Shown: piece by piece, positions 1,240-17,721 of the stretch
Layout: the number at the start of each line of letters is the position of its first letter
Position numbering within the stretch: the first letter of the stretch is position 1
DNA from: an uncultured archaeon
GTDB lineage: Archaea; Aenigmatarchaeota; Aenigmatarchaeia; CG10238-14
Length of the DNA stretch: 25,861 nucleotides
Direction of reading: 5' to 3'
Assembly (NCBI GenBank): GCA_964481805.1
Contig: CAYZVE010000001.1
Location: 13,192 to 39,052, forward strand
Made by a program: the position numbers and the translations under genes
The notes under the pieces: model-generated
Told to the model about the DNA's origin: nothing
Databases searched by the model: none
Seen by the model: the letters and a program-made list of their open reading frames with translations, nothing else

Positions 1240-1911
1240 TTAGTAAACTCCTCGTATCAAATCTTCCAAAACTATCTTTGGATCCCTTGATTTAACAACA
1301 GCTGAGGCAACTATAACCCCTTTTACACCAAGTTCAATAGCTGTTTTAATATCCTCACCAGTAGAGATTCCCGCACCACATAGTGGTATAATTTCAGGAT
1401 CAATATTACTAACAATCTCAACAAAGTTTTTAACGGAATTAGGCTTTATTTTTGATATAGCCCTGCCAGTTCCTATCAGTTCTGGGATTTCATATGCAAT
1501 AAAATCCGGTTTAAATTTTGCAATTTTTTTTGCTAATTCTATTTCTGGTGTGCAAATAACTGTTACTAATTTATTCCTTTTTGCAATATCAATGCTCCGT
1601 TTTATTTCTTCTAGGTTTAATCTATTTTCTGAGTGGTTTATAAGTGTGCCAACCGCACCAGCTTTTTTTGCAGCTAGCGCAAGTTCATGACCAGTGTAGG
1701 CTCCTGGCTCAATAGGTTCAATACTTTGTGCAAATATAGGAATTTTTAATTCCGAACTTATACGAAAAATATCAGCGTCTTGAGGTGCTATTGTAATATT
1801 AACACCATGTTTCTCTGATAATTGTTTGCAAATTCTTGCAATTTTAAGTGCATTATCACCCGTCCCTTCAGCATAACTTTTAAAATTAACTATAATCAAT
1901 GGAAGTTTCAT
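1240..1911 (-). CDS. tpiA: Triosephosphate isomerase, archaeal type
   Basis: Catalytic motifs VNFK, NHSE and AYEIPELIGTG, plus GAGI; 223 aa; 4-bp ATGA overlap with fba. Confidence 0.97.
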   Translation of the reverse strand: MKLPLIIVNFKSYAEGTGDNALKIARICKQLSEKHGVNITIAPQDADIFRISSELKIPIFAQSIEPIEPGAYTGHELALAAKKAGAVGTLINHSENRLNLEEIKRSIDIAKRNKLVTVICTPEIELAKKIAKFKPDFIAYEIPELIGTGRAISKIKPNSVKNFVEIVSNIDPEIIPLCGAGISTGEDIKTAIELGVKGVIVASAVVKSRDPKIVLEDLIRGVY

Positions 1912-2678
1912 TTTTTAACCTCATGGATAATCTTCCTAACCTCTTTTAGTATAAAAGCCCCATTTTCTTTTCCCCAAACATTCCTTCCAACAGCCATGCC
2001 AGCTGCACCTGAATCCATGACATCCTTTACCATTTGAAAAAATTCTGAATCGTCTCCTTTTATTTCTCCCCCAGCAACAGCAATAGGAACAAAATTAGAA
2101 TATTTAACTACTTTAGAAAAGGTCTCCTTTGAACCGGTATAATAGGTTTTAACTATATCTACACCCAATTCTGCCCCAACTCTAGCAGCATACCTTACAA
2201 GATTTGGATCATTCTTCTCTTTCCCTTTAACTCTTGGGTACATAAACCCTATTAATGGCATCTCTCTCTTTAAACACTGTTCTTTGATTTCACAAAGATT
2301 TTCTAGCATTTTATCTTCATTTTCAGAGCCGACGTAAACTGTGCATGCAACTCCAATTGCTCCTATGATTTCAGCTTCTTTAACTGTTGATGTGACTGTT
2401 TGTATCCTTTTTTGTGACAAGTCTGTCCTCCCAGTAACTTTTATTATCAGCGGCAATTTCCTATTGAATCTTCTCACATATCTTGCAGAACCAGGATGCA
2501 ATATCAAGCCATTAACATTTCCTTCGCAAGCAATTTTTGAAATTCTAAGCGGATCTAAATTTATTCCTTCATACCTATCGGGACCATGTTCTACGCAGTG
2601 ATCAAAAGCCATAAGGAGAGTTTTTTTTGTTTTCGGGTTTATTATTTTATCCAATCTTTTTTGTTTCTTACTAAACAT
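1908..2678 (-). CDS. fba: Class I (archaeal DhnA/FbaB-type) fructose-bisphosphate aldolase
   Basis: AFDHCVEHGP, MYPR, Schiff-base VDIVKTYY, AGG and GRNVW motifs. Start placed at ATG 2678, preceded by AAGGTGG (ORF track extends to 2693). Confidence 0.92.
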   Translation of the reverse strand: MFSKKQKRLDKIINPKTKKTLLMAFDHCVEHGPDRYEGINLDPLRISKIACEGNVNGLILHPGSARYVRRFNRKLPLIIKVTGRTDLSQKRIQTVTSTVKEAEIIGAIGVACTVYVGSENEDKMLENLCEIKEQCLKREMPLIGFMYPRVKGKEKNDPNLVRYAARVGAELGVDIVKTYYTGSKETFSKVVKYSNFVPIAVAGGEIKGDDSEFFQMVKDVMDSGAAGMAVGRNVWGKENGAFILKEVRKIIHEVKK

Positions 2679-3633
2679 TAGACCACCTTTCAATCAAATT
2701 AATTATATCTTTTTCAGAAGGTAAATCTTTCGTTGCACCGATACTTTCTATATTTAATGCAGCGGCAGCATTACCAAATTTTAAAGCATCCTCAAAAGAT
2801 TTTCCCTTCATGAACCAATGTAAAAAACTGGCAGTAAAACTATCACCAGCGCCTGTGGTATCTTTTATCTCGCTTTTAAAAGGCTTCATCTTATAAAGTT
2901 TATTTCCGTCAGAAGCTATCAATCCTTTTTTTCCCAATGTAATAATGGCTGACTGAACGCCAAAACCCAATATTCTTTTCAAGGCCTTTTGTTCATTTTT
3001 AGTATTCATTAATTCGCAAATTTCTTCTTTATTCATTATTGAAATATCGCATTTCCCCATCAAACCCAGCAACTCTTTCTTCCTATATTTAATCATATTT
3101 ATACTTGGATTTGCCAATACCTTTCCACCATTTTCTTTTATTATCCTAATGACCATTCTAACAGCATCCAAACTTTTGTCACTAATGACAGTGGTGAAAA
3201 TAAACCACTTTGCATTTTTAATATATTTCTCCGATATGTCATCCGAACCTAAGCTATCATTCGCCCCCCTAAATGTTAAGATACTTCTCTCTCCGTCTGG
3301 TGTTATAAAAACCTGAGAAAACCCTGACATAACATTTTCACTTTTTTTGAGGAATCCTATATCTACCCCTTCTGCCTTAAAATTATTACTTATTAACATG
3401 GAATTTGGATCAGAGCCAACCTTTCCAATAAAACCAACCTTACTCCCTAACTTAGACAAACCTACAGCAACATTATGGCCAGAACCACCAACATTAAATT
3501 TCAGCCCTTCTAATTCTGTTTTCGTGCCAAAGGGAAACCCTAAAAACTGTTTGCGTTTTGACCTAATATTTCTTAATCTGCTGCTATGAATTACAACATC
3601 AACCATTACTGACCCAATAACTACAACATCCAT
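2671..3633 (-). CDS. PfkB/ribokinase-family sugar kinase 1 (candidate ATP-dependent phosphofructokinase or fructokinase)
   Basis: GGSGHNVAVGLSKLG and DTTGAGDSF PfkB signatures; overlaps the fba start, so co-transcribed with fba-tpiA. ATG 3633 is more likely than GTG 3642. Confidence 0.9.
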   Translation of the reverse strand: MDVVVIGSVMVDVVIHSSRLRNIRSKRKQFLGFPFGTKTELEGLKFNVGGSGHNVAVGLSKLGSKVGFIGKVGSDPNSMLISNNFKAEGVDIGFLKKSENVMSGFSQVFITPDGERSILTFRGANDSLGSDDISEKYIKNAKWFIFTTVISDKSLDAVRMVIRIIKENGGKVLANPSINMIKYRKKELLGLMGKCDISIMNKEEICELMNTKNEQKALKRILGFGVQSAIITLGKKGLIASDGNKLYKMKPFKSEIKDTTGAGDSFTASFLHWFMKGKSFEDALKFGNAAAALNIESIGATKDLPSEKDIINLIERWSNV

Positions 3634-3703
3634 GCCATGCACTATATTTATTATCTGAAAATAAGAAGAAATAGGTTATGGGATACACTCGAATCAAAAA
3701 GGA

Positions 3704-3713
3704 AAGTTTATCT
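3704..3713 (+). promoter_or_regulatory. Candidate BRE/TATA element for ppsA
   Basis: AAGTTTATCT, starting 36 nt before the ATG, with a purine-rich run upstream. The identical 10-mer starts 35 nt before the GT3 ATG. Confidence 0.45.
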
Positions 3714-3739
3714 CTACTCAAAATAAATTAATTGGTTAT

Positions 3740-6004
3740 ATGAAATTTGTAAAATTTTTGAGTGAACTATCAAGAAACAGCTTGACAGAAGCTGGTGGAA
3801 AGGGGGCTAACCTTGCTGAAATGTATAATATGGGTTTGCCTGTACCGAATGCTTTTGTTGTGACTTCTAATGCTTACAAATATTTTCTTGAAAAAACTCA
3901 AGTCAAAGTTGCAATATTCGACATTCTCAAACACACTGATGTCAATGATTCTGATAGACTCCAAAAAAACACAAGAAAAATTAGAAAAATGATTGAAGAA
4001 ATTGAAGTCCCTCCTCAGATTAAAAATGAGATTATTCTAGCATACAGACAGCTATCAAAAGAATTTAAAAAAGAGAATGAATGGGTTGCTGCAAGAAGCT
4101 CTGCTACTGCCGAGGATCTACCAGGAGCTAGTTTTGCTGGTCAACAATTAACTGTCCTAAATGTTAAAGGAGAAGAAGGTGTTATTAATGCTGTTAAAGA
4201 GTGTTGGTCTTCTTTGTTTACTGCGAGGTCGACTTTTTATAGAGAAAGCAAAGGGTTCAAGCATGAGAAAGTCCTTATAGCAGTTCCTGTCCAAAAGCAG
4301 TTAAACTCAGAAAAGGCTGGAGTTGGATTTACTATTGAGCCCTCTTCAGGTAACAAGGATCAGATTGTAATAGAAGGTTCTTGGGGACAAGGTGAAAGTG
4401 TTGTATCTGGCGCTGTTACCCCAGACAAATATATTATTGACAAGAGGACTGGTGATATAATAGAAAAGAAAATTAACAAAAAAACAGAGATGAGAATACT
4501 TGATCCGGAAAAAGGTGGATTAATATATAGAAAAGTCCCCAAAACTAAACAGAAAGAACAGTGCTTGAATGATTATGAATTGTCTCAACTTTATGAACTG
4601 GGACTTAAATTAGAAGAGCATTATAAAACTCCACAGGATTTTGAATGGGTTGTTGAAGATAGTAAAGTTTATCTTGTACAAACAAGACCCATAACTGTCA
4701 TTTATAAAGATGTTGAAGGAGAGGATGTTGATACTACTAAAGCCCCAGTACTAAAGGGTATACCAGCATCACCTGGTGTTGCCTCTGGTGTTGTAAAGAT
4801 TATTAAAAGACCTTCTGAACTTGATAAAATAAAGAAGGGCGACGTTCTAGTCACAAAGATGACTAATCCAGATTATGTCCCAGGAATGAAAAGAGCTGTA
4901 GCAATTATTACTGATGAAGGTGGCCAGACATCTCATGCTGCGATTGTTTCCCGTGAACTTGGTGTCCCATGTATTGTTGGGAGCGAGTCTGCAACTAACA
5001 AATTAAAAGATGGAGATGTGGTAACGATTGATGGGGATGATGGTCTTGTTTATATGGGAAAGATGCATGCCAAAGTTATAAAAAAGGTTGAATATAAACA
5101 TGCCAAAACCAAGACGAGAATTTACATGAATCTAGGTGAACCTGAACTTGCTAACAAGTATAAGAGCCTTAATTGTGATGGTATAGGTCTCTTCCGTGCA
5201 GAGTTTATGGCAGCAGAAGTTGGTGAACATCCAAAAGCTTTGATTGAAAAAGGTGGAGGAGAAAAATTTGTAAAAATATTTGCTGATGGGATTAGAAAAG
5301 TTGCAAAAGCGTTCTACCCGAGACCTGTTGTTTACCGTGCACTTGACTTCAAAACAAACGAGTATGCTGACCTTAAAGGTGGGAACAAGTATGAACCAAA
5401 GGAAAGCAACCCGATGATTGGATGGAGAGGAGCTTCAAGGTATATAACTGAGCCAGAAGTTTTTAGATTAGAGTTAGAGGCAATCAAGAAAGTTAGAGAA
5501 GAAGGTTTTAAGAATGTACATTTGATGATTCCATTTGTAAGAGCGACATGGGAACTAAGGCAGATTAGAATGATTATTAAAAATATGGGTCTTCTTGATA
5601 ATAAAACCTTCAAATTATGGATAATGATTGAAGTTCCATCCTCTGCAATACTTATTGAAAGCTTTATCAGAGAAGGAATTGATGGGGTATCAATCGGATC
5701 GAATGACTTGACGCAATTGGTCTTAGGTGTTGATAGGGATTCATCCACTCTAGGAAAGAGATGGTTCTATGAACTCGACCCAGCTGTGATTTGGTGTTTA
5801 GAAAGGGTTGTAAGGACATGTAAGAAGTATGGTGTAACAAGTTCTATCTGTGGCCAGGCTCCAAGCTTTTATCCTGACTTAACGAGAAAGTTGGTGAAGT
5901 GGGGTATTACTAGTGTTTCTGTGAATCCAGATGTGGTTGATAAAACTAGAAATATTGTTGCTGATTGTGAGAAAGGGCTTATTGGAAGGTTACTTAGAAA
6001 GTAG
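3740..6004 (+). CDS. ppsA: Phosphoenolpyruvate synthase (pyruvate, water dikinase)
   Basis: GGKGANL, RSSATAEDLPGASFAGQQ, phospho-His motif TDEGGQTSHAAIVSRE, SIGSNDLTQ, ICGQAP. Confidence 0.97.
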   Translation: MKFVKFLSELSRNSLTEAGGKGANLAEMYNMGLPVPNAFVVTSNAYKYFLEKTQVKVAIFDILKHTDVNDSDRLQKNTRKIRKMIEEIEVPPQIKNEIILAYRQLSKEFKKENEWVAARSSATAEDLPGASFAGQQLTVLNVKGEEGVINAVKECWSSLFTARSTFYRESKGFKHEKVLIAVPVQKQLNSEKAGVGFTIEPSSGNKDQIVIEGSWGQGESVVSGAVTPDKYIIDKRTGDIIEKKINKKTEMRILDPEKGGLIYRKVPKTKQKEQCLNDYELSQLYELGLKLEEHYKTPQDFEWVVEDSKVYLVQTRPITVIYKDVEGEDVDTTKAPVLKGIPASPGVASGVVKIIKRPSELDKIKKGDVLVTKMTNPDYVPGMKRAVAIITDEGGQTSHAAIVSRELGVPCIVGSESATNKLKDGDVVTIDGDDGLVYMGKMHAKVIKKVEYKHAKTKTRIYMNLGEPELANKYKSLNCDGIGLFRAEFMAAEVGEHPKALIEKGGGEKFVKIFADGIRKVAKAFYPRPVVYRALDFKTNEYADLKGGNKYEPKESNPMIGWRGASRYITEPEVFRLELEAIKKVREEGFKNVHLMIPFVRATWELRQIRMIIKNMGLLDNKTFKLWIMIEVPSSAILIESFIREGIDGVSIGSNDLTQLVLGVDRDSSTLGKRWFYELDPAVIWCLERVVRTCKKYGVTSSICGQAPSFYPDLTRKLVKWGITSVSVNPDVVDKTRNIVADCEKGLIGRLLRK

Positions 6005-7546: not shown

Positions 7547-7584
7547 ACTGTTCACCTAATATTTTAATTTTTGATTAGATAAAG

Positions 7585-8721
7585 CTATTTAAGCAAATTA
7601 TTGATTTCATCTTTGCTTCTTATTTTATTAACGAGTTTCCCAACGCTTGGGTCAAAACCTCTCTGTAACGCAAGATAATAACTTAGCCATTCCAACTGTG
7701 AGGAGTACAAGAATGGGGACAACAAATCACCCTCAATGTCTGAAAATAAATATTGAGCTTTTTCATTCAAGAATTCAAATGGGTCAACGATAATTAATTT
7801 TTTCTCTCCAGCATGTTCCAGCCAAAGATTTTTAATCATTTCGAAATTTTTGTTTGAAGTTTCCCAATTTCTTTGAGGTTTGAGTAATATTAAGGGGTTT
7901 GGCTCAGATTCAAGAGTTTCTATGAGGCTGTGAATAAATTCTTCGCCCTCAACATCGCAAGCATTAACCTTGGCGGATTCCATCATCATAATCTTCGCTT
8001 GTTTTCTTGCGGCTGGATGCCTCGGGCCATCGCCAACAATATAGAAATTTTTATATTTTCTGAGTTTTTTTGACTTTTCCTGAGCCCATTTCTTAACTGC
8101 ATTTGAATTACTAAGCTCATTCACAATATTGGGTATATAATTAACTTGTAACTCAATAAACTTTTTAGAACAATTATTAACAAAAATAGTGAACAGGTTC
8201 AATGCTGCAAGTGATGCATGGAAAGACCCAGTGCTTGCCAAAGACCTTTCTGGATAGTTTTTGGTGTGTGTTCTTATTATATAACCATTTTTATAATTTT
8301 CACAAAATTTGATCAGGCTATCATCTTTTCCTTCCTTGAGGTTGGTCAAAGCTACCACATTGCATTTCTTTTCAATGGCAAATTTGCATGCTTCTAAAGT
8401 ATCATATGTGGTTCCAGATTGGCTGATAAAAATCACACATGTTTTGCTATTAAGAAATTTTGGTGGATAGTTTTTAAACATCCAAGATTGAATGGCGTCT
8501 ATCGGTTTTTCAGAAACATGCCTCCACAAATACCCTGAAGATAGAGAAACTATGTGCTTATCCCCACATCCAGAAAAAACAAATCTATCGCATTTTTTTA
8601 ACTTTTTTGAAATATTTTTTATATTTTCTAACTCATTTTTTATCGTTAATTCTATTGATAACCCTTGATTCTCTATCTCTTGTTTCATGTTCATTGAGTC
8701 TATAGGTTTTCTGATTATCAT
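7585..8721 (-). CDS. Double SIS-domain protein, GlmS isomerase-like without a glutaminase domain
   Basis: MKQEIENQ, GCG, ISQSGTTYDT, ASTGSF, EFIH and SPFLYSSQLEWLSYYLALQRGFDP align by eye with the C-terminal half of GlmS; AGTGA Shine-Dalgarno before the ATG. Confidence 0.88.
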   Translation of the reverse strand: MIIRKPIDSMNMKQEIENQGLSIELTIKNELENIKNISKKLKKCDRFVFSGCGDKHIVSLSSGYLWRHVSEKPIDAIQSWMFKNYPPKFLNSKTCVIFISQSGTTYDTLEACKFAIEKKCNVVALTNLKEGKDDSLIKFCENYKNGYIIRTHTKNYPERSLASTGSFHASLAALNLFTIFVNNCSKKFIELQVNYIPNIVNELSNSNAVKKWAQEKSKKLRKYKNFYIVGDGPRHPAARKQAKIMMMESAKVNACDVEGEEFIHSLIETLESEPNPLILLKPQRNWETSNKNFEMIKNLWLEHAGEKKLIIVDPFEFLNEKAQYLFSDIEGDLLSPFLYSSQLEWLSYYLALQRGFDPSVGKLVNKIRSKDEINNLLK

Positions 8722-8765: not shown

Positions 8766-10064
8766 ATGAAATCCGTTTATGTCCCATGGCTACATATGCA
8801 TCAACCATTAGTTTGGCGAGGAGACGAATTAATTGGAAACCTTGAAAAGATGCTGGGTTCAGAGGACCAAAAAGAATCATGGGAAGCAAAGATAATGTTA
8901 AGATCATATAAAAATCCAGTCAAATATGTCGAAAATTTAAGAAAAGAACGATACCCTGCCAAAATTATGCTTGACTTTTCGGGATTATTATTGGAGAGTA
9001 TTGAAAAAATTAAAAAAAGACTTGAAAAAATGGATGTAGATGGTGAAAAAATTGGGAATATAATCAAGCTTTACAAAGATGTTATGCATAAATATCCAGA
9101 GTCGATTGAATTTGCAGGTACAGCTTATTCTCATTGTTACTTCCCTATTACCCCAGAAAGAGACTGGGAATACCAAATAGAGGAATGGAGAAATGTGTTT
9201 GAAAAATTATTTGGGAAAGGAAACTTGAAGAACGTTAAGGGTTTTTGGCTTCCTGAAATGGGGATACCTGGAGATGATGGTAAACTTTCTTATCTCATTA
9301 AATTACTTAAGAATTCTGGTTATGAGTGGTTAATTTTACCAACAGAAGCTTTGAAAAATGAAAAACAAATGAGTTTTGAAGAGAGAGTAATAAAAACAAG
9401 CCAACCACATTTATTAAAAACTAATACCGAATCAATCCCTGTTATATTCAGGATAAGATATGATTTCATTGATCAGCAAGCTGGCTGTGACGCAAAAGGT
9501 GTCTATGAAAAATCTCTGTTAGCTGCAAGTATTTTTGGAAAGATCAGTAATAAACCAGCTTTAGTTGTTCCTGCTTCTGATGGAGAAAATGGCAATGTTA
9601 TGATGAATGAATTTTTCCCTTCAACTTTTGAGAGATTCTTCAAAGAACAAATTAATGATGATGTTTCTTCCATGACTGTCACAGAATTCCTGAAGAATTA
9701 TTACCAAAAAATAGATTCTGAAATTAAAATAACAGAAGAAGGTAGTTCATGGATCGGTAGCCATAAAAATTGGCAAGAAGGTGACGAAAGGATTAAAATC
9801 AACAAAAAAATCTCCCAACTGAGTCAAAGGCTTGATGTAATTGGAGAGAATTTGAAAAAGCTTAAATCGGATAGAAAAATTAAAGAAAAATATGAATATG
9901 TAAAAAACCATTTATTGATTGCAGAAACGAGTTGTTACACCTATTGGGGAGTTGATTTTTGGTTTGACCAGGCAAGAAAATTAATAAAATTACTTGAAAA
10001 AGAGATGGATGAGTTGAATTATTTATTTGATAGGAACCTTTATTTTAAGGCAAAACAAAATTGA
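8766..10064 (+). CDS. GH57 family glycoside hydrolase 2
   Basis: LHMHQP, GFWLPEM, SDGEN and AETSCYTYW match the GH57 conserved regions. Confidence 0.85.
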   Translation: MKSVYVPWLHMHQPLVWRGDELIGNLEKMLGSEDQKESWEAKIMLRSYKNPVKYVENLRKERYPAKIMLDFSGLLLESIEKIKKRLEKMDVDGEKIGNIIKLYKDVMHKYPESIEFAGTAYSHCYFPITPERDWEYQIEEWRNVFEKLFGKGNLKNVKGFWLPEMGIPGDDGKLSYLIKLLKNSGYEWLILPTEALKNEKQMSFEERVIKTSQPHLLKTNTESIPVIFRIRYDFIDQQAGCDAKGVYEKSLLAASIFGKISNKPALVVPASDGENGNVMMNEFFPSTFERFFKEQINDDVSSMTVTEFLKNYYQKIDSEIKITEEGSSWIGSHKNWQEGDERIKINKKISQLSQRLDVIGENLKKLKSDRKIKEKYEYVKNHLLIAETSCYTYWGVDFWFDQARKLIKLLEKEMDELNYLFDRNLYFKAKQN

Positions 10065-10077
10065 TAATAACAAATTA

Positions 10078-11262
10078 ATGGAGGGAATTGAAATCAGAAT
10101 TGCTCATTTTTCATGGGAATCTCTTCATTCCATTCATGTAGGTGGAATATCTCCTGTAGTTACTGAACTTGCTGCCGCTCAAGAAAGGATGGGGCATGAA
10201 GTTCATGTATTTACGAGAATTGGTCCTGGGCAAAAAGAATATGAAAAAATTGATGGTGTGCATTATCATAGATGCCCATTTGCATTCAGCCCAGATTTAT
10301 TCCAGGAAATGCATAATATGTGCAAGTCAATGTCAAAGGCGTTCTCTGGTTGTGAAGATTTTTCTGGGAAATTTGATATTGTTCATGGCCATGATTGGCA
10401 TGTTGTCCCAGCATTGGATGAAATTAAAAAAGCAAGGAATAAAAAAATTATCTGGACATGCCATTCAAGCCAATTTGGGAGGGATGGTAATAAATTTTAC
10501 AATGGAGCTGCTGAATCTATTCGTGGTTTAGAGTGGTATGGAACATACATTACAAATATAGTCACCACATGCACAAATACAATGAAAAAAGAGGTTCAAT
10601 GGTTGAATAGGGTCCCTGAAGAAAAAATGAAAGTGGTTAACAATGGGATAAACCCATATTCATATAATAATCATGTTGATATCGGAAAAGTGAAAGAAAG
10701 TTTAGGTATAGGTGTCATGGACCCAACTGTCCTTTTCATCGGAAGAATTACTCATATGAAAGGCCCTGACATCCTAATTGAAAGTATACCTACAGTTTTA
10801 AAAGATTACCCAAATGCTAAATTCATTTTTGTTGGTACTGGTGATATGAAAAGCTATTTGAAAACCAGAATTAACCAACTTGGTATAAATAATGCTGTAA
10901 AATTCACTGGTTGGATATCTGATGAAAGAAGAAGAGAAGAATTACTTAAGGCATCAGACGTCATTTGTGATCCAAGCAGGAACCAACCATTTGGTATGAT
11001 TATATTAGAAAGCTGGGCGTCTAATAAACCAGTTATTGCAGTTCATGGGACAGGTTCTGGTGAATTGGTAACGCATGATGTAAATGGGCTTAAAATTTAT
11101 GAAAACCCTGATTCAGTGTCATGGGGCATCAAAAATATTTTTTCTGATTTTGATAAATCCAGATGGATGGGAAATAATGGGAGAAAGGAAACAGAGGGAA
11201 GATTTGCATGGGAAAATATAGCTAAACAAATGTTATCTGTTTATGAGGATGCGTTAAAATGA
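10078..11262 (+). CDS. GT4 (GT-B) glycosyltransferase, glycogen-synthase-like, with E->Q in the EX7E motif
   Basis: SWESLHSIHVGG, HGHDWH, GRITHMKGPD, PSRNQPFGMIILE. ATG 10078 follows the upstream stop at 10064 (track start 10027 overlaps the previous gene). Confidence 0.9.
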   Translation: MEGIEIRIAHFSWESLHSIHVGGISPVVTELAAAQERMGHEVHVFTRIGPGQKEYEKIDGVHYHRCPFAFSPDLFQEMHNMCKSMSKAFSGCEDFSGKFDIVHGHDWHVVPALDEIKKARNKKIIWTCHSSQFGRDGNKFYNGAAESIRGLEWYGTYITNIVTTCTNTMKKEVQWLNRVPEEKMKVVNNGINPYSYNNHVDIGKVKESLGIGVMDPTVLFIGRITHMKGPDILIESIPTVLKDYPNAKFIFVGTGDMKSYLKTRINQLGINNAVKFTGWISDERRREELLKASDVICDPSRNQPFGMIILESWASNKPVIAVHGTGSGELVTHDVNGLKIYENPDSVSWGIKNIFSDFDKSRWMGNNGRKETEGRFAWENIAKQMLSVYEDALK

Positions 11263-11477
11263 AATGCTGGTTCTGTGATAAGGAAGCAAGAGGTGTCTGT
11301 ATATTCTGCGGGAGAGGAGTCTGTCATGAACATGCAAACAAAGATGAAATAACCCATGCAAAATCGGACACTTCAACAGGCTACACTACTTATTTCAAAG
11401 TTCAAAATGCACTGAAATGTTCAGATTGCAAGGGAATTTGGGAAAACTGGGAAAGGGGAAAAATGATTTTAAAATAG
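11259..11477 (+). CDS. Small Cys/His-rich putative zinc-finger protein (72 aa)
   Basis: CWFC-x7-CIFC-x4-CHEH plus a distal CSDC; ATGA overlap with the GT4 stop suggests translational coupling. Confidence 0.8.
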   Translation: MKCWFCDKEARGVCIFCGRGVCHEHANKDEITHAKSDTSTGYTTYFKVQNALKCSDCKGIWENWERGKMILK

Positions 11478-12533
11478 TTTCAGGAATTTTCCTGAGATAA
11501 GAAACATAACATGGGACCATGCCAAAGGTGAAACTGAAACCTGGACATTATTTTCAAAAATTTGTTCTGGGATGTAATCTTCCACTTTATCAACAACCCA
11601 GAAAAAATAATCTTTGGCCTTCTTTTTATCTCCAAAAATAGAAAAGTATATCGATGCCCAAAAATTCAAAAGTGGCCATGCACCAGCCCCTTTCTTTCTG
11701 TGAAAACCTTCATACATCCAGCCATCATATTCATCATGCTCATACCTGTGCATTCCACCATTTTTTACCAATTTATTCTCTATCTCTTTTACCGTAGAAA
11801 TCATCATAGGGTCATTTGCACCTATTGTATTAAATGGGTAAATTAACCCGAACATAGATGCATCAATCCTTTCATCACTTAAAATGCCATGAGACCTGAC
11901 AAAAAATTTCCCATTATAATGTTTTTTAAGAATTTCTTTCATTTGGTTGGATGTTTCAAGCCATTTAGGATTCTCTATGATTTCATTTGCCAGTTCCAAA
12001 CCTTTTGAACAGGCTGCAAGATCATACGTGAAATTATCCTTCAAATCAGGGAATGTATGCCTCTCTTCCCATAAATCATTTGTTATTAATTTGAAATGGC
12101 CCTTATTCCAATTATTACATAAACCATCTGCTGTCTTCGTGATTAATTCTTCAAACTCAAATGCCCTGGATAATTTTTTTTGGTAATGGTGATGAATTGC
12201 AAAAAGTATTGAACCTCCCTGATCTGGCTGAAATCTTGTTTCGGCTTTCAATCCATTTGGAAAATATTTTTCAAAAAATAACCCTTTCCTTCTGAACCCT
12301 TCCGCTCTGTTCAAGCACCATTCAAAAAAATTTTCTTGGATTTTTTTAATTCCAAAAAGATCTGCAGATATACAGACAAAAGATGCATCCCTTGGCCAGA
12401 CATAAAAATAATGTTTTGCTTCTGATGGATAATATTTTTTTGTTGAGTTGGCAGCTACTATTGATCCATTATCTAAGCAACAATCTTTTATAATTTCAAT
12501 GCTTCTTTTTTTCAATTGTCGTATTTTTTTCAT
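11469..12533 (-). CDS. GH15 glucoamylase/trehalase-like hydrolase
   Basis: YVWPRDAS, DLWEE (acid), IPEQ (base), PLAWSH; no signal peptide; ATGA overlap with PfkB-2. Confidence 0.9.
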   Translation of the reverse strand: MKKIRQLKKRSIEIIKDCCLDNGSIVAANSTKKYYPSEAKHYFYVWPRDASFVCISADLFGIKKIQENFFEWCLNRAEGFRRKGLFFEKYFPNGLKAETRFQPDQGGSILFAIHHHYQKKLSRAFEFEELITKTADGLCNNWNKGHFKLITNDLWEERHTFPDLKDNFTYDLAACSKGLELANEIIENPKWLETSNQMKEILKKHYNGKFFVRSHGILSDERIDASMFGLIYPFNTIGANDPMMISTVKEIENKLVKNGGMHRYEHDEYDGWMYEGFHRKKGAGAWPLLNFWASIYFSIFGDKKKAKDYFFWVVDKVEDYIPEQIFENNVQVSVSPLAWSHVMFLISGKFLKLF

Positions 12534-13462
12534 ATTTCCCCTTTATCTATGAAGTTTTTAACCTCTTTGTATGTCGGATATCTTTCTAATCCAAATTTAG
12601 TTATTGACATAGCCGCAGCCGCATTAGCAAACAAAGCTGCTTCTTCATTTGATTCTCCCATTAAAGATTTTTTGATTAATGCGGCAAGAAATACATCACC
12701 AGCTCCTGTTGTATTTATTGGGTTTACGGGAAATGATCTTATTAATTGGCTTTTATTTTTATTTGCCAATAAACATCCATCTTCTCCAAGTTTCAGGCAA
12801 ACATTTTTAGGCCCAAACATTAATAATTTAACTGCAATTAAATTTGGATTTTCAGTAAATGCTATAGATTTTCCCTCTTCTAAATCAGGGAAGAACCAGT
12901 CTGTCATTTTTAGTACCTCAAGTAAATCTTTTAATCTATCTGGAGTCCAACCATCAGGATCCCAATTAGGATCAAGTGCTGTTTTCATATCTTTATCTTG
13001 TGCGTATTCAAACAAATTTCTGACGCTGCCTCTTAGGCTGTTTAATAAATTAAATCCAGATAAAACAAATACCTTGCCAACTATTTGTTCTATAGAAAAA
13101 TCTTTGGTTGATAATGTATCGTTTGTACCTTTAAAAGTAATAAATGATCTGTAATTTTGAATGGATAATGCAAAAGTTATACCCGTCATTTCATTATTTG
13201 AAATTTTTATTTTTCTATCCACACCAACATTTTTTAATGTATTTAAAATTAAAGGTGAAAATACATCATTCCCTATCTTACCCATTAATCTTGTTTTCAG
13301 CCCCAATCTTGCACAAGCTATGGCTGTATTACAAGCAGAACCTCCTGTGTTAATGTCAATATAAGGTACAACACATTGTTTGTTTTTTTCTGGCAATTTA
13401 TCAAACTTGTATGTTATCATATCTACATTTATATCTCCAAGAACAGTAACATCAATTGCCAT
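12530..13462 (-). CDS. PfkB/ribokinase-family sugar kinase 2 (candidate glucose/hexose kinase)
   Basis: GGSACNTAIACARLG and NTTGAGDVF signatures; lies between the phosphohexomutase and GH15. Confidence 0.9.
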   Translation of the reverse strand: MAIDVTVLGDINVDMITYKFDKLPEKNKQCVVPYIDINTGGSACNTAIACARLGLKTRLMGKIGNDVFSPLILNTLKNVGVDRKIKISNNEMTGITFALSIQNYRSFITFKGTNDTLSTKDFSIEQIVGKVFVLSGFNLLNSLRGSVRNLFEYAQDKDMKTALDPNWDPDGWTPDRLKDLLEVLKMTDWFFPDLEEGKSIAFTENPNLIAVKLLMFGPKNVCLKLGEDGCLLANKNKSQLIRSFPVNPINTTGAGDVFLAALIKKSLMGESNEEAALFANAAAAMSITKFGLERYPTYKEVKNFIDKGEI

Positions 13463-13464
13463 AA

Positions 13465-14817
13465 TTAAATTATCGGAATTTGTCTATTTAACTCTTTTAA
13501 AATTATATCCCTTATTTGGTTCAATTTTTCTTTGGTTATAGCTTCAAATCTTGCAGATAATTCTGGTTCTGTATTTGAAGCCCTTATCAAACCCCAGCCG
13601 TCTTTGAATTCTATCCTGACACCATCTATTGTAACCAGTTTATATCCTTGGTATTTTAAAGTTCTCTTAATCCTTTCAATAACTTTGTATTTCTTTTCAT
13701 CAGGGCATGGTATTCTTTCCTCTTGAGTGGACTGGTATTTTAAGAATGGTTTGACCAAATCAGAAAGTTTTTCTTTTTCTTTTGTTAGATGTTCAATAAA
13801 TTTTAACGCGGCAAATATACCATCTTCATAATAATTATTTTCGGTAAAGTAAAAATGCCCGCTTAACTCCCCCCCTAAAAGAGATTTTATCTTTTTCATT
13901 TTAGTTACTATATTCGGATAGCCCACCTTACTCATTATTGGGATTCCACCATTTTCTTTAACATATTCAATAAACATTCTAGAAAATTTTACTTCATGGA
14001 CAATTTTGGGTTTCTTATAGTTTTCTAACATGTGTTTGGCAAAGAATATCATTGCTATATCGCTTCTAATTACATTTCCTTTCTCATCGATAAAGGCTAC
14101 CCTATCTCCATCATTATCAAATGCTATTCCAATATCAGATTTTGTCTTAATGACTTTTTTCTTGAGGTCAATTAATGTTTCTTCCATGGAAGGGTTTGGT
14201 ATATGGTTAGGAAATCTTCCGTCCAATTTGCAGTAAAGTTCTTTAACGTCACATCCCATGTCATTCAGGAGTCTAGGCACAATTTCTCCACAATTTCCGT
14301 TGCCGGCGTCAACAACAATCTTCATTTTTTTCTCAAATTTTACTTTACTTTTAACGAATTCCAGATACTCATTAACTATATTTTCTTCCTCTAAATTTCC
14401 CTCCTTCCTTTTAATAAATTTCCTTTCCTTTATCAATTTCTTCATTTTTAAAGTAGTTTTATAATGAAAAGGAATTGCATTTTTATTCCTAAACTTAAAA
14501 CCGTTATATTCTGGGGGGTTATGAGAAGCCGTTATCATAACTCCAGCATCCATTTTGTGATGGTATACTGCAAAATACAAGAGCGGGCTAGGAACCACCC
14601 CTATATCTGTGACATTGCAGCCAGTCGATCTTAATCCAGAGATAAGGCCTTCTTTTATATCTTTACTGCTTAATCTTACATCCATGCCAACAGAAACCGA
14701 TTTTTTTCCTTTTAGAATAGTTCCAAATGCAGCACCAACATTCTCTGCATCACTAATCAAAAAATCCTTGCCAACCACCCCTCTTATATCATATTTTCTG
14801 AAAATTGTGCCTTTCAT
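13465..14817 (-). CDS. pgm: Phosphoglucomutase/phosphomannomutase
   Basis: FRKYDIRG, phospho-Ser TASHNP, metal loop DNDGDR, GELSGH, RASNTEP. Confidence 0.95.
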   Translation of the reverse strand: MKGTIFRKYDIRGVVGKDFLISDAENVGAAFGTILKGKKSVSVGMDVRLSSKDIKEGLISGLRSTGCNVTDIGVVPSPLLYFAVYHHKMDAGVMITASHNPPEYNGFKFRNKNAIPFHYKTTLKMKKLIKERKFIKRKEGNLEEENIVNEYLEFVKSKVKFEKKMKIVVDAGNGNCGEIVPRLLNDMGCDVKELYCKLDGRFPNHIPNPSMEETLIDLKKKVIKTKSDIGIAFDNDGDRVAFIDEKGNVIRSDIAMIFFAKHMLENYKKPKIVHEVKFSRMFIEYVKENGGIPIMSKVGYPNIVTKMKKIKSLLGGELSGHFYFTENNYYEDGIFAALKFIEHLTKEKEKLSDLVKPFLKYQSTQEERIPCPDEKKYKVIERIKRTLKYQGYKLVTIDGVRIEFKDGWGLIRASNTEPELSARFEAITKEKLNQIRDIILKELNRQIPII

Positions 14818-14853
14818 TTAATTATCAATAGAAATTTTGAAAAGAAATACGTT

Positions 14854-14863
14854 AAGTTTATCT
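14854..14863 (+). promoter_or_regulatory. Candidate BRE/TATA element for the GT3-galT-debrancher operon
   Basis: AAGTTTATCT, identical to the ppsA upstream element and at nearly the same distance from the ATG. Confidence 0.45.
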
Positions 14864-14888
14864 GAGACGAAAGCTATAATATCTCTAT

Positions 14889-16736
14889 ATGATAGAAAAG
14901 GGTCCTGAAACCTGTTTTGAGGTTTCATTTGAATGCGGGAATAAGGTTGGCGGTATATATACAATTCTCCAATCAAAAAGTGAGGAGATGAAAAAAAAAT
15001 ATGGGGAGAATTACTGGACAATAGGCTTCTTTAATCCTAAAACATATCTAGACAATTTTGAGGATATGAAGCCTTCAAAAGAACTGGAAAAAGTTTTTAT
15101 TGAATTGGAAAAAGAGGGTATCAAGTGCTACTATGGAAAGTGGTTCCAGGCGAATGATGTCAATTTGATTCTGATAGATCCCAAGGAATTCAGGGAGAAA
15201 AAAGTTAATGAAATCAAAAAACACCTTTGGGACAATTATAATATAGATTCATTAGATGTCGGCTTTGATTTTGATGAACCAATTTCTTGGAGTTATGCAA
15301 GTGGGATGTTAATAGAAAAAATGTCATATATGAATGAATTCAAAACTAAGAGGATAGCTGCTCATTTTCATGAATGGCTATCTGGAGTGGGATTACTTTA
15401 TTTAAGAAAAAAAAATCTTCCGATAGGCCTAGTTTTTACGACTCATGCAACTAGAATAGGCAGGGCGAAATCCAATAATGGAGAAAATCTGATGAAAGAA
15501 ATTACTGAAAATCTTAGGAGTGGAAAACAGTTTGATGATAAGGAAGCCTACAAATATAAGCTTCAGGCCCAACATATGGTAGAATTGAATTCAGCAAAAT
15601 ATGCAGATATTTTTACAACTGTAAGCAATATTGTTAAAGAAGAGGCTAAATATTTTCTAAAAAGAACGCCAGAAATTGTTGTCCCAAATGCATTAGATTT
15701 ATCAGATCCATCAGATTTATATACAACTAGAACATTAACAATTCTTCATGAAAAATACAGGGATAAAATAAATAGATTCTTGGAGGCTTATTTCTCGCCA
15801 TATTATTCAATGAAAATGAAGGATAATCTGGTCATTTTTATTTCTGGAAGATATGAATTCCTGAATAAAGGAATTGACTATTTTATTAATTCCCTAAAAC
15901 TTCTCAATGAGAAACTTAAAAAAGGAAAATGTGAAAAAACGGTATTTGCTTTTATCTTAATACCATCTGGAATCAAAGGTCCAAAAAATAGTATTCTAGA
16001 AAATATGGTTCAATACCAAAAAATGATGGATTTGGCAGGGGAAAAATTATTAGATATACCGCATGATGTTGTATCAGAGATGCTCTATAATAAGAAAATA
16101 GATATCGAGAAAATATTAGGTAAAGATTTTTTCATGAAAATGAGAGTTTTATCAAATTTCGTCCTTAAATTTCGGGGTAAAAATCCGCCTTTATGTGCCT
16201 ATGATTTGGATTATAATGAAAATACAGACGCGATATTGAATAAACTCAAAGAATTGGGATTGACAAATAATGAAGCAGATAAGGTGAAGGTAATATTTTA
16301 TCCAACATATCTTTCCTCATCTGATGGTCTGCTAGGAATGGAGTATAACGATTTTGCAATCGGTTCTTCTGTTGGAGTTTTTCCTTCGAGATATGAGCCT
16401 TGGGGATATACGCCATTTGAAACAGCCGTATTAAGGACATTAACAATAACTACAGATGTTGCTGGTTTTGGGGACTTCATCCTTAAAAATGTTCCTAAAA
16501 AGAATCCAATAAAAGTTTTGCATGTTATGAATAGAACAGAGGAAGAAGTTTCAAATGAATTGGCTGATGCGTTAGAATTCTTTGTATTTGTTGGAAAAGA
16601 GGAAAGAACCAGGCTTAAAATCAGAACAAGGGAAGCAGTAGATATTTTAGATTGGGAAATCCAAGCAGTTAATTATTTCAACTCTCATAATCTTTCAATT
16701 AAAAAAATGTTAGAAAGGGTTAAAAAAAATGGGTGA
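14889..16736 (+). CDS. GT3 family glycogen synthase (fungal/animal/Bacteroidetes type)
   Basis: FEVSFECGNKVGGIYT, HEWLSG, FTTHAT, GRYEFLNKG, FPSRYEPWGYTP. Confidence 0.93.
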   Translation: MIEKGPETCFEVSFECGNKVGGIYTILQSKSEEMKKKYGENYWTIGFFNPKTYLDNFEDMKPSKELEKVFIELEKEGIKCYYGKWFQANDVNLILIDPKEFREKKVNEIKKHLWDNYNIDSLDVGFDFDEPISWSYASGMLIEKMSYMNEFKTKRIAAHFHEWLSGVGLLYLRKKNLPIGLVFTTHATRIGRAKSNNGENLMKEITENLRSGKQFDDKEAYKYKLQAQHMVELNSAKYADIFTTVSNIVKEEAKYFLKRTPEIVVPNALDLSDPSDLYTTRTLTILHEKYRDKINRFLEAYFSPYYSMKMKDNLVIFISGRYEFLNKGIDYFINSLKLLNEKLKKGKCEKTVFAFILIPSGIKGPKNSILENMVQYQKMMDLAGEKLLDIPHDVVSEMLYNKKIDIEKILGKDFFMKMRVLSNFVLKFRGKNPPLCAYDLDYNENTDAILNKLKELGLTNNEADKVKVIFYPTYLSSSDGLLGMEYNDFAIGSSVGVFPSRYEPWGYTPFETAVLRTLTITTDVAGFGDFILKNVPKKNPIKVLHVMNRTEEEVSNELADALEFFVFVGKEERTRLKIRTREAVDILDWEIQAVNYFNSHNLSIKKMLERVKKNG

Positions 16737-17721
16737 AATTAGAAAGGATTATCTTTTGGATAGATGGGTAATAATTTCTGAAAATAGGAAATTTAGACCA
16801 CAATTAGAAAAAAAAATAGAGGAAAAAGGACCTAAAAACTCAAAAGATTGTGTGTTCTGTCCAGGAAATGAAGGGATGTGCCAAGGAGCAGTTATAGAAA
16901 AGCCATCTGGAAAAAACTGGAAAATAAGAGCGGTTGAAAATAGATACCCTGCTGTTACTAAGAATATAGGATTTGAAGAGAATTTTGAGAGGCTGATCAA
17001 TAAAAAAACTAGTTATGGTTCTCATTATTTGATAATAGACGTTCCACAACACAATCTTCATCCTGGTTTTTATGACAAGGATCAATGGAAACTTTGGTTT
17101 GAAACAATAAAAGATATTTTTAACAAGGAAGCTGCAGATGAAAATATTCAATATATTTTGGCTTTCAAGAATCATGGGATTGAAGCAGGAGCTTCTCAAC
17201 CACATCCACATTCACAAATAATATCTTTGCCTGCCGTTCCGCTCTTGATAAATGAAGAAATGTCGGCGGCTGATGATTATTATACTTTTGAGGGAAAATG
17301 CATTTTCTGTGAAATCATCAAAATGGAGAGTGAATTCAAAAAAAGGGTTGTTTTTGAGAATGAGCATGTTATAGCATTCTGCCCCTACGCACCTTTATGG
17401 CCGTTTGAAGTATGGATATTTCCAAAGGAACATAACCCCTCTATACAGATGCCAAGAAAATCTGAAGATGAGATACTTGCAGCTCTTGGTATAGTGCTTA
17501 AGACCTATTATAAAGTTTTGGACGACCCGCCATTTAATTTCTATTTTCATACAGCATATTTAAGAATGAGAGACCATGTGGCTCAGAAATATCATTTTCA
17601 CATAGAAATCAACCCAAGATTAGAGAAAGATGCCGGATTTGAGCTTGGGGCTGGAATGAATATAACCACTATTTCTCCAGAGGACGCTGCAAAAATTTTG
17701 AGGGAAAATCTTGAAAAATAA
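16729..17721 (+). CDS. galT: GalT-family (HIT superfamily) hexose-1-phosphate nucleotidyltransferase
   Basis: ELR-like start (EIRKDYL), Zn motifs CVFCPGNE and CIFC, catalytic GASQPHPHSQ; 8-bp overlap with GT3. Confidence 0.92.
   Translation: MGEIRKDYLLDRWVIISENRKFRPQLEKKIEEKGPKNSKDCVFCPGNEGMCQGAVIEKPSGKNWKIRAVENRYPAVTKNIGFEENFERLINKKTSYGSHYLIIDVPQHNLHPGFYDKDQWKLWFETIKDIFNKEAADENIQYILAFKNHGIEAGASQPHPHSQIISLPAVPLLINEEMSAADDYYTFEGKCIFCEIIKMESEFKKRVVFENEHVIAFCPYAPLWPFEVWIFPKEHNPSIQMPRKSEDEILAALGIVLKTYYKVLDDPPFNFYFHTAYLRMRDHVAQKYHFHIEINPRLEKDAGFELGAGMNITTISPEDAAKILRENLEK

Follow-up and report, generated by a model that had tools for sequence, protein, structure and literature searches.

Introduction

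Phosphoglucose isomerase (PGI), which interconverts glucose 6-phosphate (G6P) and fructose 6-phosphate (F6P), is regarded as a near-universal step, and three families are recognized in a 2025 review: PGI, cPGI and PGI/PMI, where PMI is phosphomannose isomerase (PMC12525153). Here we analyze a gene that may encode a further type. It lies in a stretch of 25,861 nucleotides from an uncultured archaeon of the Aenigmatarchaeota (assembly GCA_964481805.1, contig CAYZVE010000001.1, positions 13,192 to 39,052), which we call the window, at 7585–8721 on the minus strand, and it encodes a stand-alone protein of 378 amino acids with two SIS subdomains. From the gene context and the conserved residues we consider it probable, by a modest balance, that this SIS protein is a new type of PGI on the isomerase fold of GlmS. 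It is not one of the three recognized types and, if confirmed, would be a fourth, inside a SIS superfamily that already holds PGI and PGI/PMI.

The closest described system is the isomerase domain of GlmS/GFAT, in which Glu488, His504 and Lys603 are assigned to ketose-aldose isomerization (PMC9272926). This domain needs no amine donor to turn F6P into G6P, as an earlier note on the window had stated. The isomerase domain of hGFAT2 does so with a kcat of 0.32 per min (PMC7948480), and that paper cites Leriche 1996 for the same conversion by the GlmS/GFAT isomerase domain.

GlmD of the Thermococcales and NagB-II of Shewanella are GlmS-like double-SIS enzymes that, like the SIS protein, lack a glutaminase domain, and they act on F6P and glucosamine 6-phosphate (GlcN6P). 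Deglycases of the FrlB/FraB type also share the fold, and are sometimes paired with a PfkB-family kinase. The PGI/PMI of Crenarchaeota and Thermoplasma (TIGR02128; structure 1TZB) resembles the SIS protein in being a stand-alone double-SIS protein of about 300–380 amino acids, and in the F6P/G6P activity that we propose here. In PGI/PMI the phosphate loop has the motif G-[MLIV]-G-G-S, the catalytic Glu and His are 16 residues apart, and a Lys lies near the C-terminus.

A complete double-SIS protein without a glutaminase domain

The gene begins with an ATG codon. Residues 40–178 of its product (8188–8604, minus strand) form an N-terminal SIS subdomain that carries the phosphate-binding loops, and are a confident match to the Pfam SIS family (PF01380; E = 4.5e-11, with 43.1 bits where the cut-off is 25). 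Residues 226–369 (7615–8046, minus strand) form a C-terminal SIS subdomain that holds the C-terminal Lys as well as the putative catalytic Glu and His. They match PF10432 (bact-PGI_C) below threshold, at 22.6 bits against a cut-off of 24.5, and the subdomain is supported by full-length alignment of the protein to the GlmS isomerase domain. With its two subdomains and its Ser/Thr-rich phosphate loop the protein belongs to the double-SIS phosphosugar isomerase superfamily.

The earlier note had described the protein as lacking a glutaminase domain, and this is correct. The protein starts at the SIS region, and the N-terminal class II domain with its Cys1 is absent. There is no space for one, because only 44 nucleotides lie upstream before the divergent gene starting at 8766, and because the N-terminus is conserved; it is kept, with an invariant D8, in 29 homologues of equal length. 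All 50 homologues have lengths of 321–390 amino acids. A GlmS pseudogene or truncated fragment is ruled out by the full length of the protein, and by the conservation of N-terminus and length across phyla. We also reject single-SIS enzymes (PHI, GmhA, KpsF), which gave marginal partial matches alone, since the architecture is double-SIS.

The SIS protein is present with 100% identity on 21 public contigs, and its nearest named relatives are from Aenigmatarchaeota. Identical DNA occurs in 24 sequencing runs, all of them groundwater or aquifer DNA metagenomes; the locus was found in no RNA run.

An AlphaFold2 model calculated on the family alignment has two alpha/beta subdomains, with a predicted local distance difference test score (pLDDT) of 90.3 and a predicted template modeling score (pTM) of 0.91. 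Confidence is low around His264 (residues 261–270, pLDDT 65) and in the C-terminal tail (residues 361–370, pLDDT 58); the latter would be expected for a mobile lid. Foldseek found 178 PDB matches of the model at E ≤ 0.001, and 50 of 50 among the matches listed are double-SIS proteins. FrlB-like, GlmS and NagB-II structures are matched at E ~1e-15 with template modeling (TM) scores of 0.65–0.77, so that the similarity of fold is well beyond chance. GlmS/GFAT isomerase domains lie at 0.72–0.77, NagB-II (8FDB) is among the best at 0.76, and FrlB/FraB-type structures (3FKJ, 3EUA, 3G68) are the top matches both by fold and in single-sequence searches of the PDB. Comparison of the predicted model in this way does not discriminate among FrlB-like, GlmS and NagB-II proteins.

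The active site

We aligned the protein with E. coli GlmS from MG1655 and checked the coordinates of each motif codon by codon; all motifs below are on the minus strand. The three residues assigned to isomerization in GlmS are present. The equivalent of the catalytic base E488 is E248 (7978–7980), the last residue of IMMME (residues 244–248, 7978–7992). The equivalent of H504, which acts in ring opening, is H264 (7930–7932) within EEFIHSLIE (residues 260–268, 7918–7944), exactly 16 residues past E248. The equivalent of K603 is K366, which lies eleven residues past the Gly of GFDP in the C-terminal stretch GFDPSVGKLVNKIR. This last equivalence rests on a MAFFT alignment (A2), because hmmalign in glocal mode left the C-terminal tail of GlmS unaligned. 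E248, H264 and K366 are all invariant across the family, and the terminal K366-I-R368 (7618–7626) adds an invariant, family-specific Arg.

The phosphate-binding loop SQSGTT (residues 100–105, 8407–8424) retains S347, Q348, S349 and T352 of GlmS as S100, Q101, S102 and T105, with E351 changed to T104. Columns common to the SIS family and GlmS are S100, Q101, S102, G103, T105, D107, E158, S163, T164, E248 and H264; equivalents of GlmS E396, S401 and T402 are kept.

Elsewhere the site departs from that of GlmS. The loop that reads CGTS in GlmS and GMGGS in PGI/PMI is GCGDK (residues 51–55, 8557–8571), with the family signature GxGDK, such that D54 and K55 replace T302 and S303. G51, G53, D54 and K55 do not vary among 29 family sequences, and D and K occupy the latter two positions in 64 of 66 aligned members, where outgroups have T/S and S/A. 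The GlmS lysines K485 and K487, which lie in the motif LKLKE, are both replaced by Met (M245 and M247), a family-specific residue in 61/73 and 65/73 sequences, respectively. Among 46 full-length GlmS sequences K485 is kept in 43 and K487 in 38, and of 77 stand-alone relatives of the GlmS-like kind about 60 keep these lysines. The SIS family has HSL where GlmS, FrlB and AgaS have HGP, the columns of S265 and L266 being Gly-Pro in GlmS, FrlB and stand-alone relatives, and the C-terminal tail is KxR rather than the KSVTVE of GlmS. Further family-specific columns are W66, D231, R234, K240 (Glu in GlmS), K251 (Tyr in GlmS), E260, E268, W300 and W345. The loss of K485 and K487 together with the new charged residues would point to a re-wired electrostatic environment in the active site. 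The motifs that the earlier note had read by eye, that is the spacing of Glu and His, the C-terminal Lys, CGDK, SQSGTT and the Met at K485, are thus all borne out, with the replacement of K487 as an addition.

A small and separate clade

The SIS protein scores below the curated cut-offs of all the named families tested. It gives 76.3 bits against a cut-off of 418 and 86.2 against 381 on the NCBIfam GlmS models (TIGR01135, NF001484), 58.3 against 430 for FrlB (NF008481), 37.7 against 430 for NagB-II (NF046059) and 29.4 against 580 for GlmD (NF041128). The archaeal PGI/PMI model TIGR02128 is matched over the full length but weakly, with 45.8 bits against 213.9. AgaS (TIGR02815) is not among the NCBIfam matches at E ≤ 1, and at the same threshold there is no Pfam match to conventional PGI (PF00342) or cupin PGI.

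When a profile of 29 family members is compared with the PDB, the best match is to GlmS isomerase domains, full length at 79 bits (E = 2e-21), followed by FrlB-like proteins (54–64 bits), NagB-II (37) and GlmD (27–31). The PGI/PMI structure of P. aerophilum, 1TZB, is reached at 12 bits with E = 0.46. By sequence the family clearly sides with GlmS within the superfamily, and not with PGI/PMI. It is nevertheless distinct from GlmS, as ordinary stand-alone GlmS-like isomerases score 225–320 bits on the GlmS models and members of the SIS family 50–86.

When 1.84 billion cluster representatives were searched exhaustively with a profile, 30 were obtained at E ≤ 1e-30; the scores, which start at 574 bits, have dropped to about 125 where the bulk of GlmS and GlmS-like proteins sets in. 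GxGDK is carried by members down to about 150 bits and is found at the corresponding position in none of the outgroup proteins listed (P0076–P0100); the lone outgroup match, in P0081, is at residue 185 in the N-terminal half. The one full-length GlmS match (P0051) is a Methanobrevibacter GlmS, and the 120 matches listed for it are all from Methanobacteriaceae. On these sequence comparisons the SIS protein is a member of its own small, rare and sharply bounded clade, with the invariant signatures GxGDK, IMxME, EEFxHSLIE and KxR. The earlier note would have given way had a canonical PGI been present and the protein grouped with GlmD, FrlB or AgaS; what we find is a clade apart, at 29–86 bits where the cut-offs are 381–580.

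Members carry public annotations such as 'SIS domain-containing protein', 'glucosamine--fructose-6-phosphate aminotransferase' and 'FrlB-like', and we found no paper that gives the clade a function. Li et al. 2021 list a gene about ten positions from fbaB as arCOG00057/K00820 GlmS (PMC8407114), and this is probably the SIS gene. Their arCOG table is not a genome census, because it covers only genes derived by horizontal gene transfer.

A glycogen and glycolysis cluster without a recognizable PGI

The SIS gene is flanked on both sides by GH57 genes. Downstream on the same strand, after a gap of 29–38 nucleotides, lies the first (PF03065; 6017–7555, minus strand), and the two probably form a two-gene operon. 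The start of this GH57 gene is probably the ATG at 7546, after AGGTGA, rather than the listed GTG at 7555; public calls give 509 amino acids. The second (PF03065; 8766–10064, plus strand) is divergent, across a 44-nucleotide A+T-rich intergenic region.

Beyond these lie two metabolic blocks. A block of lower and upper glycolysis, identified by NCBIfam scores (1240–6004, mixed strands), comprises triosephosphate isomerase (TIM; 1240–1911, minus), class I aldolase of fructose 1,6-bisphosphate (FBP) (1908–2693, minus), a PfkB-family kinase (2671–3642, minus) and phosphoenolpyruvate (PEP) synthase (3740–6004, plus). A glycogen block (10027–20993, mixed strands) encodes a GT4/GT5 glycogen synthase, a DUF2180 protein, GH15, a second PfkB kinase (12530–13462, minus), a phosphohexomutase (13465–14817), a GT3 glycogen synthase, a GalT-like protein, an archaeal debranching enzyme and a third GH57 protein. 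Type II glyceraldehyde-3-phosphate dehydrogenase (GAPDH; 21940–22971, plus) and phosphoglycerate kinase (PGK; 22990–24258, plus) are also encoded. In total the window has two PfkB kinases, two glycogen synthases and three GH57 proteins.

The window thus covers the steps around G6P and F6P except PGI. No PGI (PF00342), cupin PGI or PGI/PMI was found in it by family scans of the larger open reading frames (ORFs), by tblastn with E. coli Pgi or by motif scans, which agrees with what the earlier note had said of the cluster. Across 561 kb comprising the window and 35 related loci there is neither a canonical PGI nor a cupin-PGI motif, nor an ORF of PGI/PMI type.

This gap has a counterpart in published genomes. 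'Incomplete glycolysis' is a recurrent finding in metabolic reconstructions of DPANN archaea, and the gaps have been used to argue for dependence on a host (PMC8407114). In Data Set S1 of Li et al. 2021, three metagenome-assembled genomes (MAGs) from hot springs, DRTY-6_2 bin 202, DRTY-6_1 bin 65 and DRTY-7_1 bin 34, are 92.6–98.1% complete and have zero entries for pgi1 and pgi-pmi; they do have TPI, fbaB, gap2, PGK, ENO, PGM, galT and GYS (PMC8407114), and their gene repertoire is exactly the one seen in the window. We find the SIS gene in DRTY-6_1 bin 65 (locus L017) and DRTY-7_1 bin 34 (L019). A third assembly of the same accession series, JAHLMQ01, also carries it. MAGs with a cupin PGI or PGI/PMI call in the table did not appear among the SIS loci, which is weak evidence. 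The Undinarchaeota and DPANN comparative papers that we consulted do not discuss PGI, and for Odinarchaeota and the other Asgard archaea our literature search found no statement about it.

Neighborhoods in other archaea

We scanned one genome per GTDB species for the SIS gene, compared the loci obtained, and others, with the proteins of the window, and annotated the remaining neighbors. The SIS gene occurs at 26 species loci, all from DPANN and Asgard archaea. They belong to Aenigmatarchaeota, 'Parvarchaeota', Woesearchaeota, Nanoarchaeota, Undinarchaeota, Altiarchaeota, Jordarchaeia, Hodarchaeota, Odinarchaeota and Promethearchaeota, with one MAG labelled Thermoproteota in addition.

The arrangement GH57-SIS-GH57 is present in all nine Aenigmatarchaeota species loci and on three further contigs, and in these loci glycogen synthase, PEP synthase, PfkB, FBP aldolase and TIM are usually no more than 10 kb away. 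In two 'Parvarchaeota' and three Nanoarchaeota loci the SIS gene lies among GalT-like, GT3/GT4 synthase, GH57, debranching enzyme and phosphohexomutase genes. In the woesearchaeote L026 (4632–9826) it is the fourth of five co-directional genes, in the order TIM, 2x[4Fe-4S] ferredoxin, aldehyde:ferredoxin oxidoreductase (probably GAPOR), SIS and FBP aldolase/phosphatase (PF01950, 591 bits). Loci of Altiarchaeota, Undinarchaeota and one nanoarchaeote have no informative neighbors.

In loci L013 and L025 a PfkB kinase gene lies directly upstream of the SIS gene, overlapping its start in L013. Such pairs recall FrlD/FrlB, and the protein might then be a deglycase of Amadori products (fructosamine 6-phosphates) working with the adjacent kinase, or an isomerase of some other ketose phosphate. 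The kinase PfkB_a partially matches the model of fructoselysine 6-kinase (88.7 bits, the cut-off being 247), the FrlB-like 'putative phosphosugar isomerases' 3FKJ and 3EUA are the best Foldseek matches, and FrlB too has no Lys at the positions of K485 and K487, where it has T and M. Yet the score on the FrlB model is far below its cut-off, and FrlB has no equivalent of the K366/R368 tail, whose Lys is invariant in the SIS family, or of the GxGDK loop. There is no frl- or fra-type transporter or epimerase nearby, and the context is one of glycogen and glycolysis, not of amino-acid conjugates. We regard a deglycase, or an isomerase of another ketose phosphate, as the least probable of the activities considered.

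On the Asgard side the neighbors differ. In Odin-, Hod- and Promethearchaeota the SIS gene forms a conserved unit beside the ribosomal S19 gene, in the order mutase, SIS and a gene for a protein of 95–97 amino acids that matches eukaryotic DPM2/PIG-P (L006, 8624–11507; L007, 8616–11527; also L023, L029, L030, L033 and L038). DPM2 and PIG-P are subunits of the dolichol-phosphate-mannose and GPI-GlcNAc transferase complexes. In Jordarchaeia and the 'Thermoproteota' MAG the SIS gene is divergent from genes for a sugar-1-phosphate nucleotidyltransferase and a 4,6-dehydratase-like protein, and the Jordarchaeia transferase passes the cut-off for glucose-1-phosphate thymidylyltransferase (rmlA_long, 343 bits against 320).

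The operon in which the SIS gene stands between a mutase of the phosphoglucomutase/phosphomannomutase (PGM/PMM) family and a DPM2-like gene would suit a PMI or a bifunctional PGI/PMI, making mannose 6-phosphate for GDP-mannose and dolichol-phosphate-mannose, with or without G6P. The full-length match to TIGR02128 and the match to PF10432 are in keeping with this, and the Pyrobaculum PGI/PMI has, in E203, H219 and K298, the same spacing of 16 and a C-terminal Lys. Both of those scores are under the curated cut-offs, however, the family profile hardly reaches 1TZB, and there is no GMGGS loop. The glycogen clusters that hold most members have no place for mannose, and we see no gene of a GDP-mannose pathway beside the DPANN members. 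A mannose-directed enzyme is in our view rather improbable; both it and a FrlB-like deglycase are less likely than PGI.

Proposed activity

Taken across archaea, the context strongly favors an enzyme that acts on hexose 6-phosphates in central carbon and glycogen metabolism. We prefer PGI because interconversion of G6P and F6P is the sole single activity that fits every informative neighborhood, G6P being the one intermediate that suits all of them. The clade most likely supplies the G6P/F6P step reported missing in published reconstructions, judged by gene context. The earlier note had proposed either a new PGI family or an entry enzyme resembling GlcN6P deaminase. The former is the better supported, because of the comparative context and the two MAGs that carry the gene and have no annotated PGI, while the amino-sugar option stays alive.

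A number of findings weigh against PGI. PGI chemistry is a slow side activity in GlmS, the Schiff-base lysine K603 of GlmS is retained as K366, and by sequence the clade is far nearer to GlmS, at 79 bits, than to PGI/PMI, at 12 bits. The mutase upstream of the SIS gene in Odinarchaeum passes the archaeal GlmM cut-off (TIGR03990, 567 bits against 439), and the Jordarchaeia transferase passes that of Arch_glmU (341 against 292) in addition to rmlA_long. The absence of PGI from the DRTY MAGs is read from an automated KEGG/COG annotation table, and its absence from the window concerns 26 kb of the genome only.

It is because these Asgard neighbors score as GlmM and GlmU-like that the amino-sugar option stays alive. 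The protein would then be a glutaminase-less GlcN6P enzyme, either an ammonia-dependent synthase feeding GlmM and GlmU for UDP-GlcNAc, or a deaminase like GlmD and NagB-II. GlmS isomerase domains are its closest relatives in sequence and fold, with the equivalents of E488, H504 and K603 all kept; in seven or eight Asgard loci the gene stands after the GlmM-passing mutase and before the DPM2/PIG-P-like gene; and automated pipelines label members as GlmS (K00820/arCOG00057). Against this, the scores on the GlmD and NagB-II models are a small fraction of their cut-offs, and the Lys pair kept by most stand-alone relatives has been lost. Moreover, the glycogen-cluster mutase of the window likewise scores 408 bits on the GlmM model, so the model draws no clean line between PGM and GlmM, and promiscuity is common among archaeal mutases of this family. 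The Jordarchaeia transferase passes the cut-off of glucose-1-phosphate thymidylyltransferase as well as that of Arch_glmU. The position beside FBP aldolase/phosphatase fits both a PGI and a GlcN6P enzyme, because F6P is a substrate in both. A GlcN6P enzyme would however leave unexplained the GH57-SIS-GH57 arrangement, the PfkB-SIS pairs and the glycogen-synthase clusters of four DPANN lineages, to which GlcN6P is of no use; the surroundings are those of glycogen and glycolysis rather than the chitin/GlcNAc catabolism of GlmD and NagB-II. We consider it unlikely, although it is the foremost of the alternatives.

The two activities might also be combined. A single glutaminase-less enzyme on the GlmS fold could convert F6P to G6P and in addition make GlcN6P from free ammonia, providing G6P for glycogen and NDP-glucose and GlcN6P for UDP-GlcNAc, and so replacing both PGI and GlmS in reduced genomes. 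The occurrence of one and the same invariant active site in DPANN glycogen clusters and beside GlmM/GlmU-like genes in Asgard archaea would thereby be accounted for. We nonetheless think such a double duty decidedly improbable.

By homology with GlmS, we infer how a PGI of this kind might work, and with it the substrate and direction. The protein would act on F6P as an aldose-ketose isomerase in the cytoplasm, probably as a dimer. The phosphate would be held by S100, S102 and T105 of the SQSGxT loop together with K55 in the GxGDK loop. Ring opening could be performed by H264, contributed by the partner subunit, with K366 on the mobile C-terminal tail, and E248 would move the proton between C1 and C2 via a cis-enediolate. 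With Met in place of K485 and K487, the invariant D54, K55, R234, K240, K251 and R368 are presumed to stabilize the intermediate.

Such an enzyme would join the glycogen branch (GH57, GH15, debranching enzyme, glycogen synthases and phosphohexomutase) to the glycolytic and gluconeogenic branch (PfkB kinases, FBP aldolase, TIM, GAPDH, PGK and PEP synthase). It would take F6P from FBP aldolase/phosphatase, and feed the mutase and the NDP-sugar transferase. If PGI is the correct assignment, there would be a continuous route between glycogen and pyruvate in several Aenigmatarchaeota, Nanoarchaeota, 'Parvarchaeota' and Woesearchaeota and in some Asgard lineages. This would also be a plain instance in which the isomerase domain of GlmS had its side activity recruited as the main one, and it would provide an annotation model to supplant the labels 'GlmS', 'FrlB-like' and 'SIS domain-containing protein'.

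Other features of the window

The window has a G+C content of 30–38%, and its type II GAPDH, TIM, MinD and debranching enzyme are of archaeal type. There is precedent for a phosphofructokinase (PFK) of the PfkB type in the PFK-B-type ATP-PFK of Aeropyrum. Related MAGs are reported to have no PFK, and most of them no glucokinase (PMC8407114); the two PfkB/ribokinase-family kinases of the window are obvious candidates for these missing enzymes.

The GT3 glycogen synthase, of eukaryotic type (PF05693), is always paired with the GalT-like uridylyltransferase of the HIT family (14889–17721 in the window; also L011, L014, L021 and L025). The window encodes no NDP-glucose pyrophosphorylase, and the GalT-like enzyme may be the supplier of sugar nucleotide for glycogen synthesis.

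A MinD/ParA-type ATPase is found in or beside the glycogen clusters of Aenigmatarchaeota and Nanoarchaeota (20990–21760, minus strand, in the window; L011, 7668–8429; L012, 7697–8458; L027, 5370–6089), adjoining the GT4 glycogen synthase in Nanoarchaeota. It may be a factor for positioning or partitioning of granules. Between the GT4 glycogen synthase and GH15 lies an ORF for a Cys-rich, zinc-ribbon-like DUF2180 protein of 72 amino acids (11259–11477, plus strand), a position kept in the identical contigs L001, L003 and L004.

The PGK ORF is listed from a GTG at 23260, giving 332 amino acids. The conserved N-terminus IKDFQTIDDFDFKGKTVILRVDINSP is however in frame from 22990, in a region that has a TAG stop at 22987–22989 and no ATG, GTG or TTG. 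PGK seems to start at ATA 22990 or ATT 23008, with a length of about 422 amino acids; otherwise there is an error in the assembly. Finally, 24568–25827 (minus strand) encodes a Thr/Ser/Asn-rich protein of 419 amino acids that has a hydrophobic anchor at its C-terminus and weakly matches a model for putative S-layer proteins of the PACE-CTERM type. This is probably a surface protein that is unrelated to the sugar cluster.

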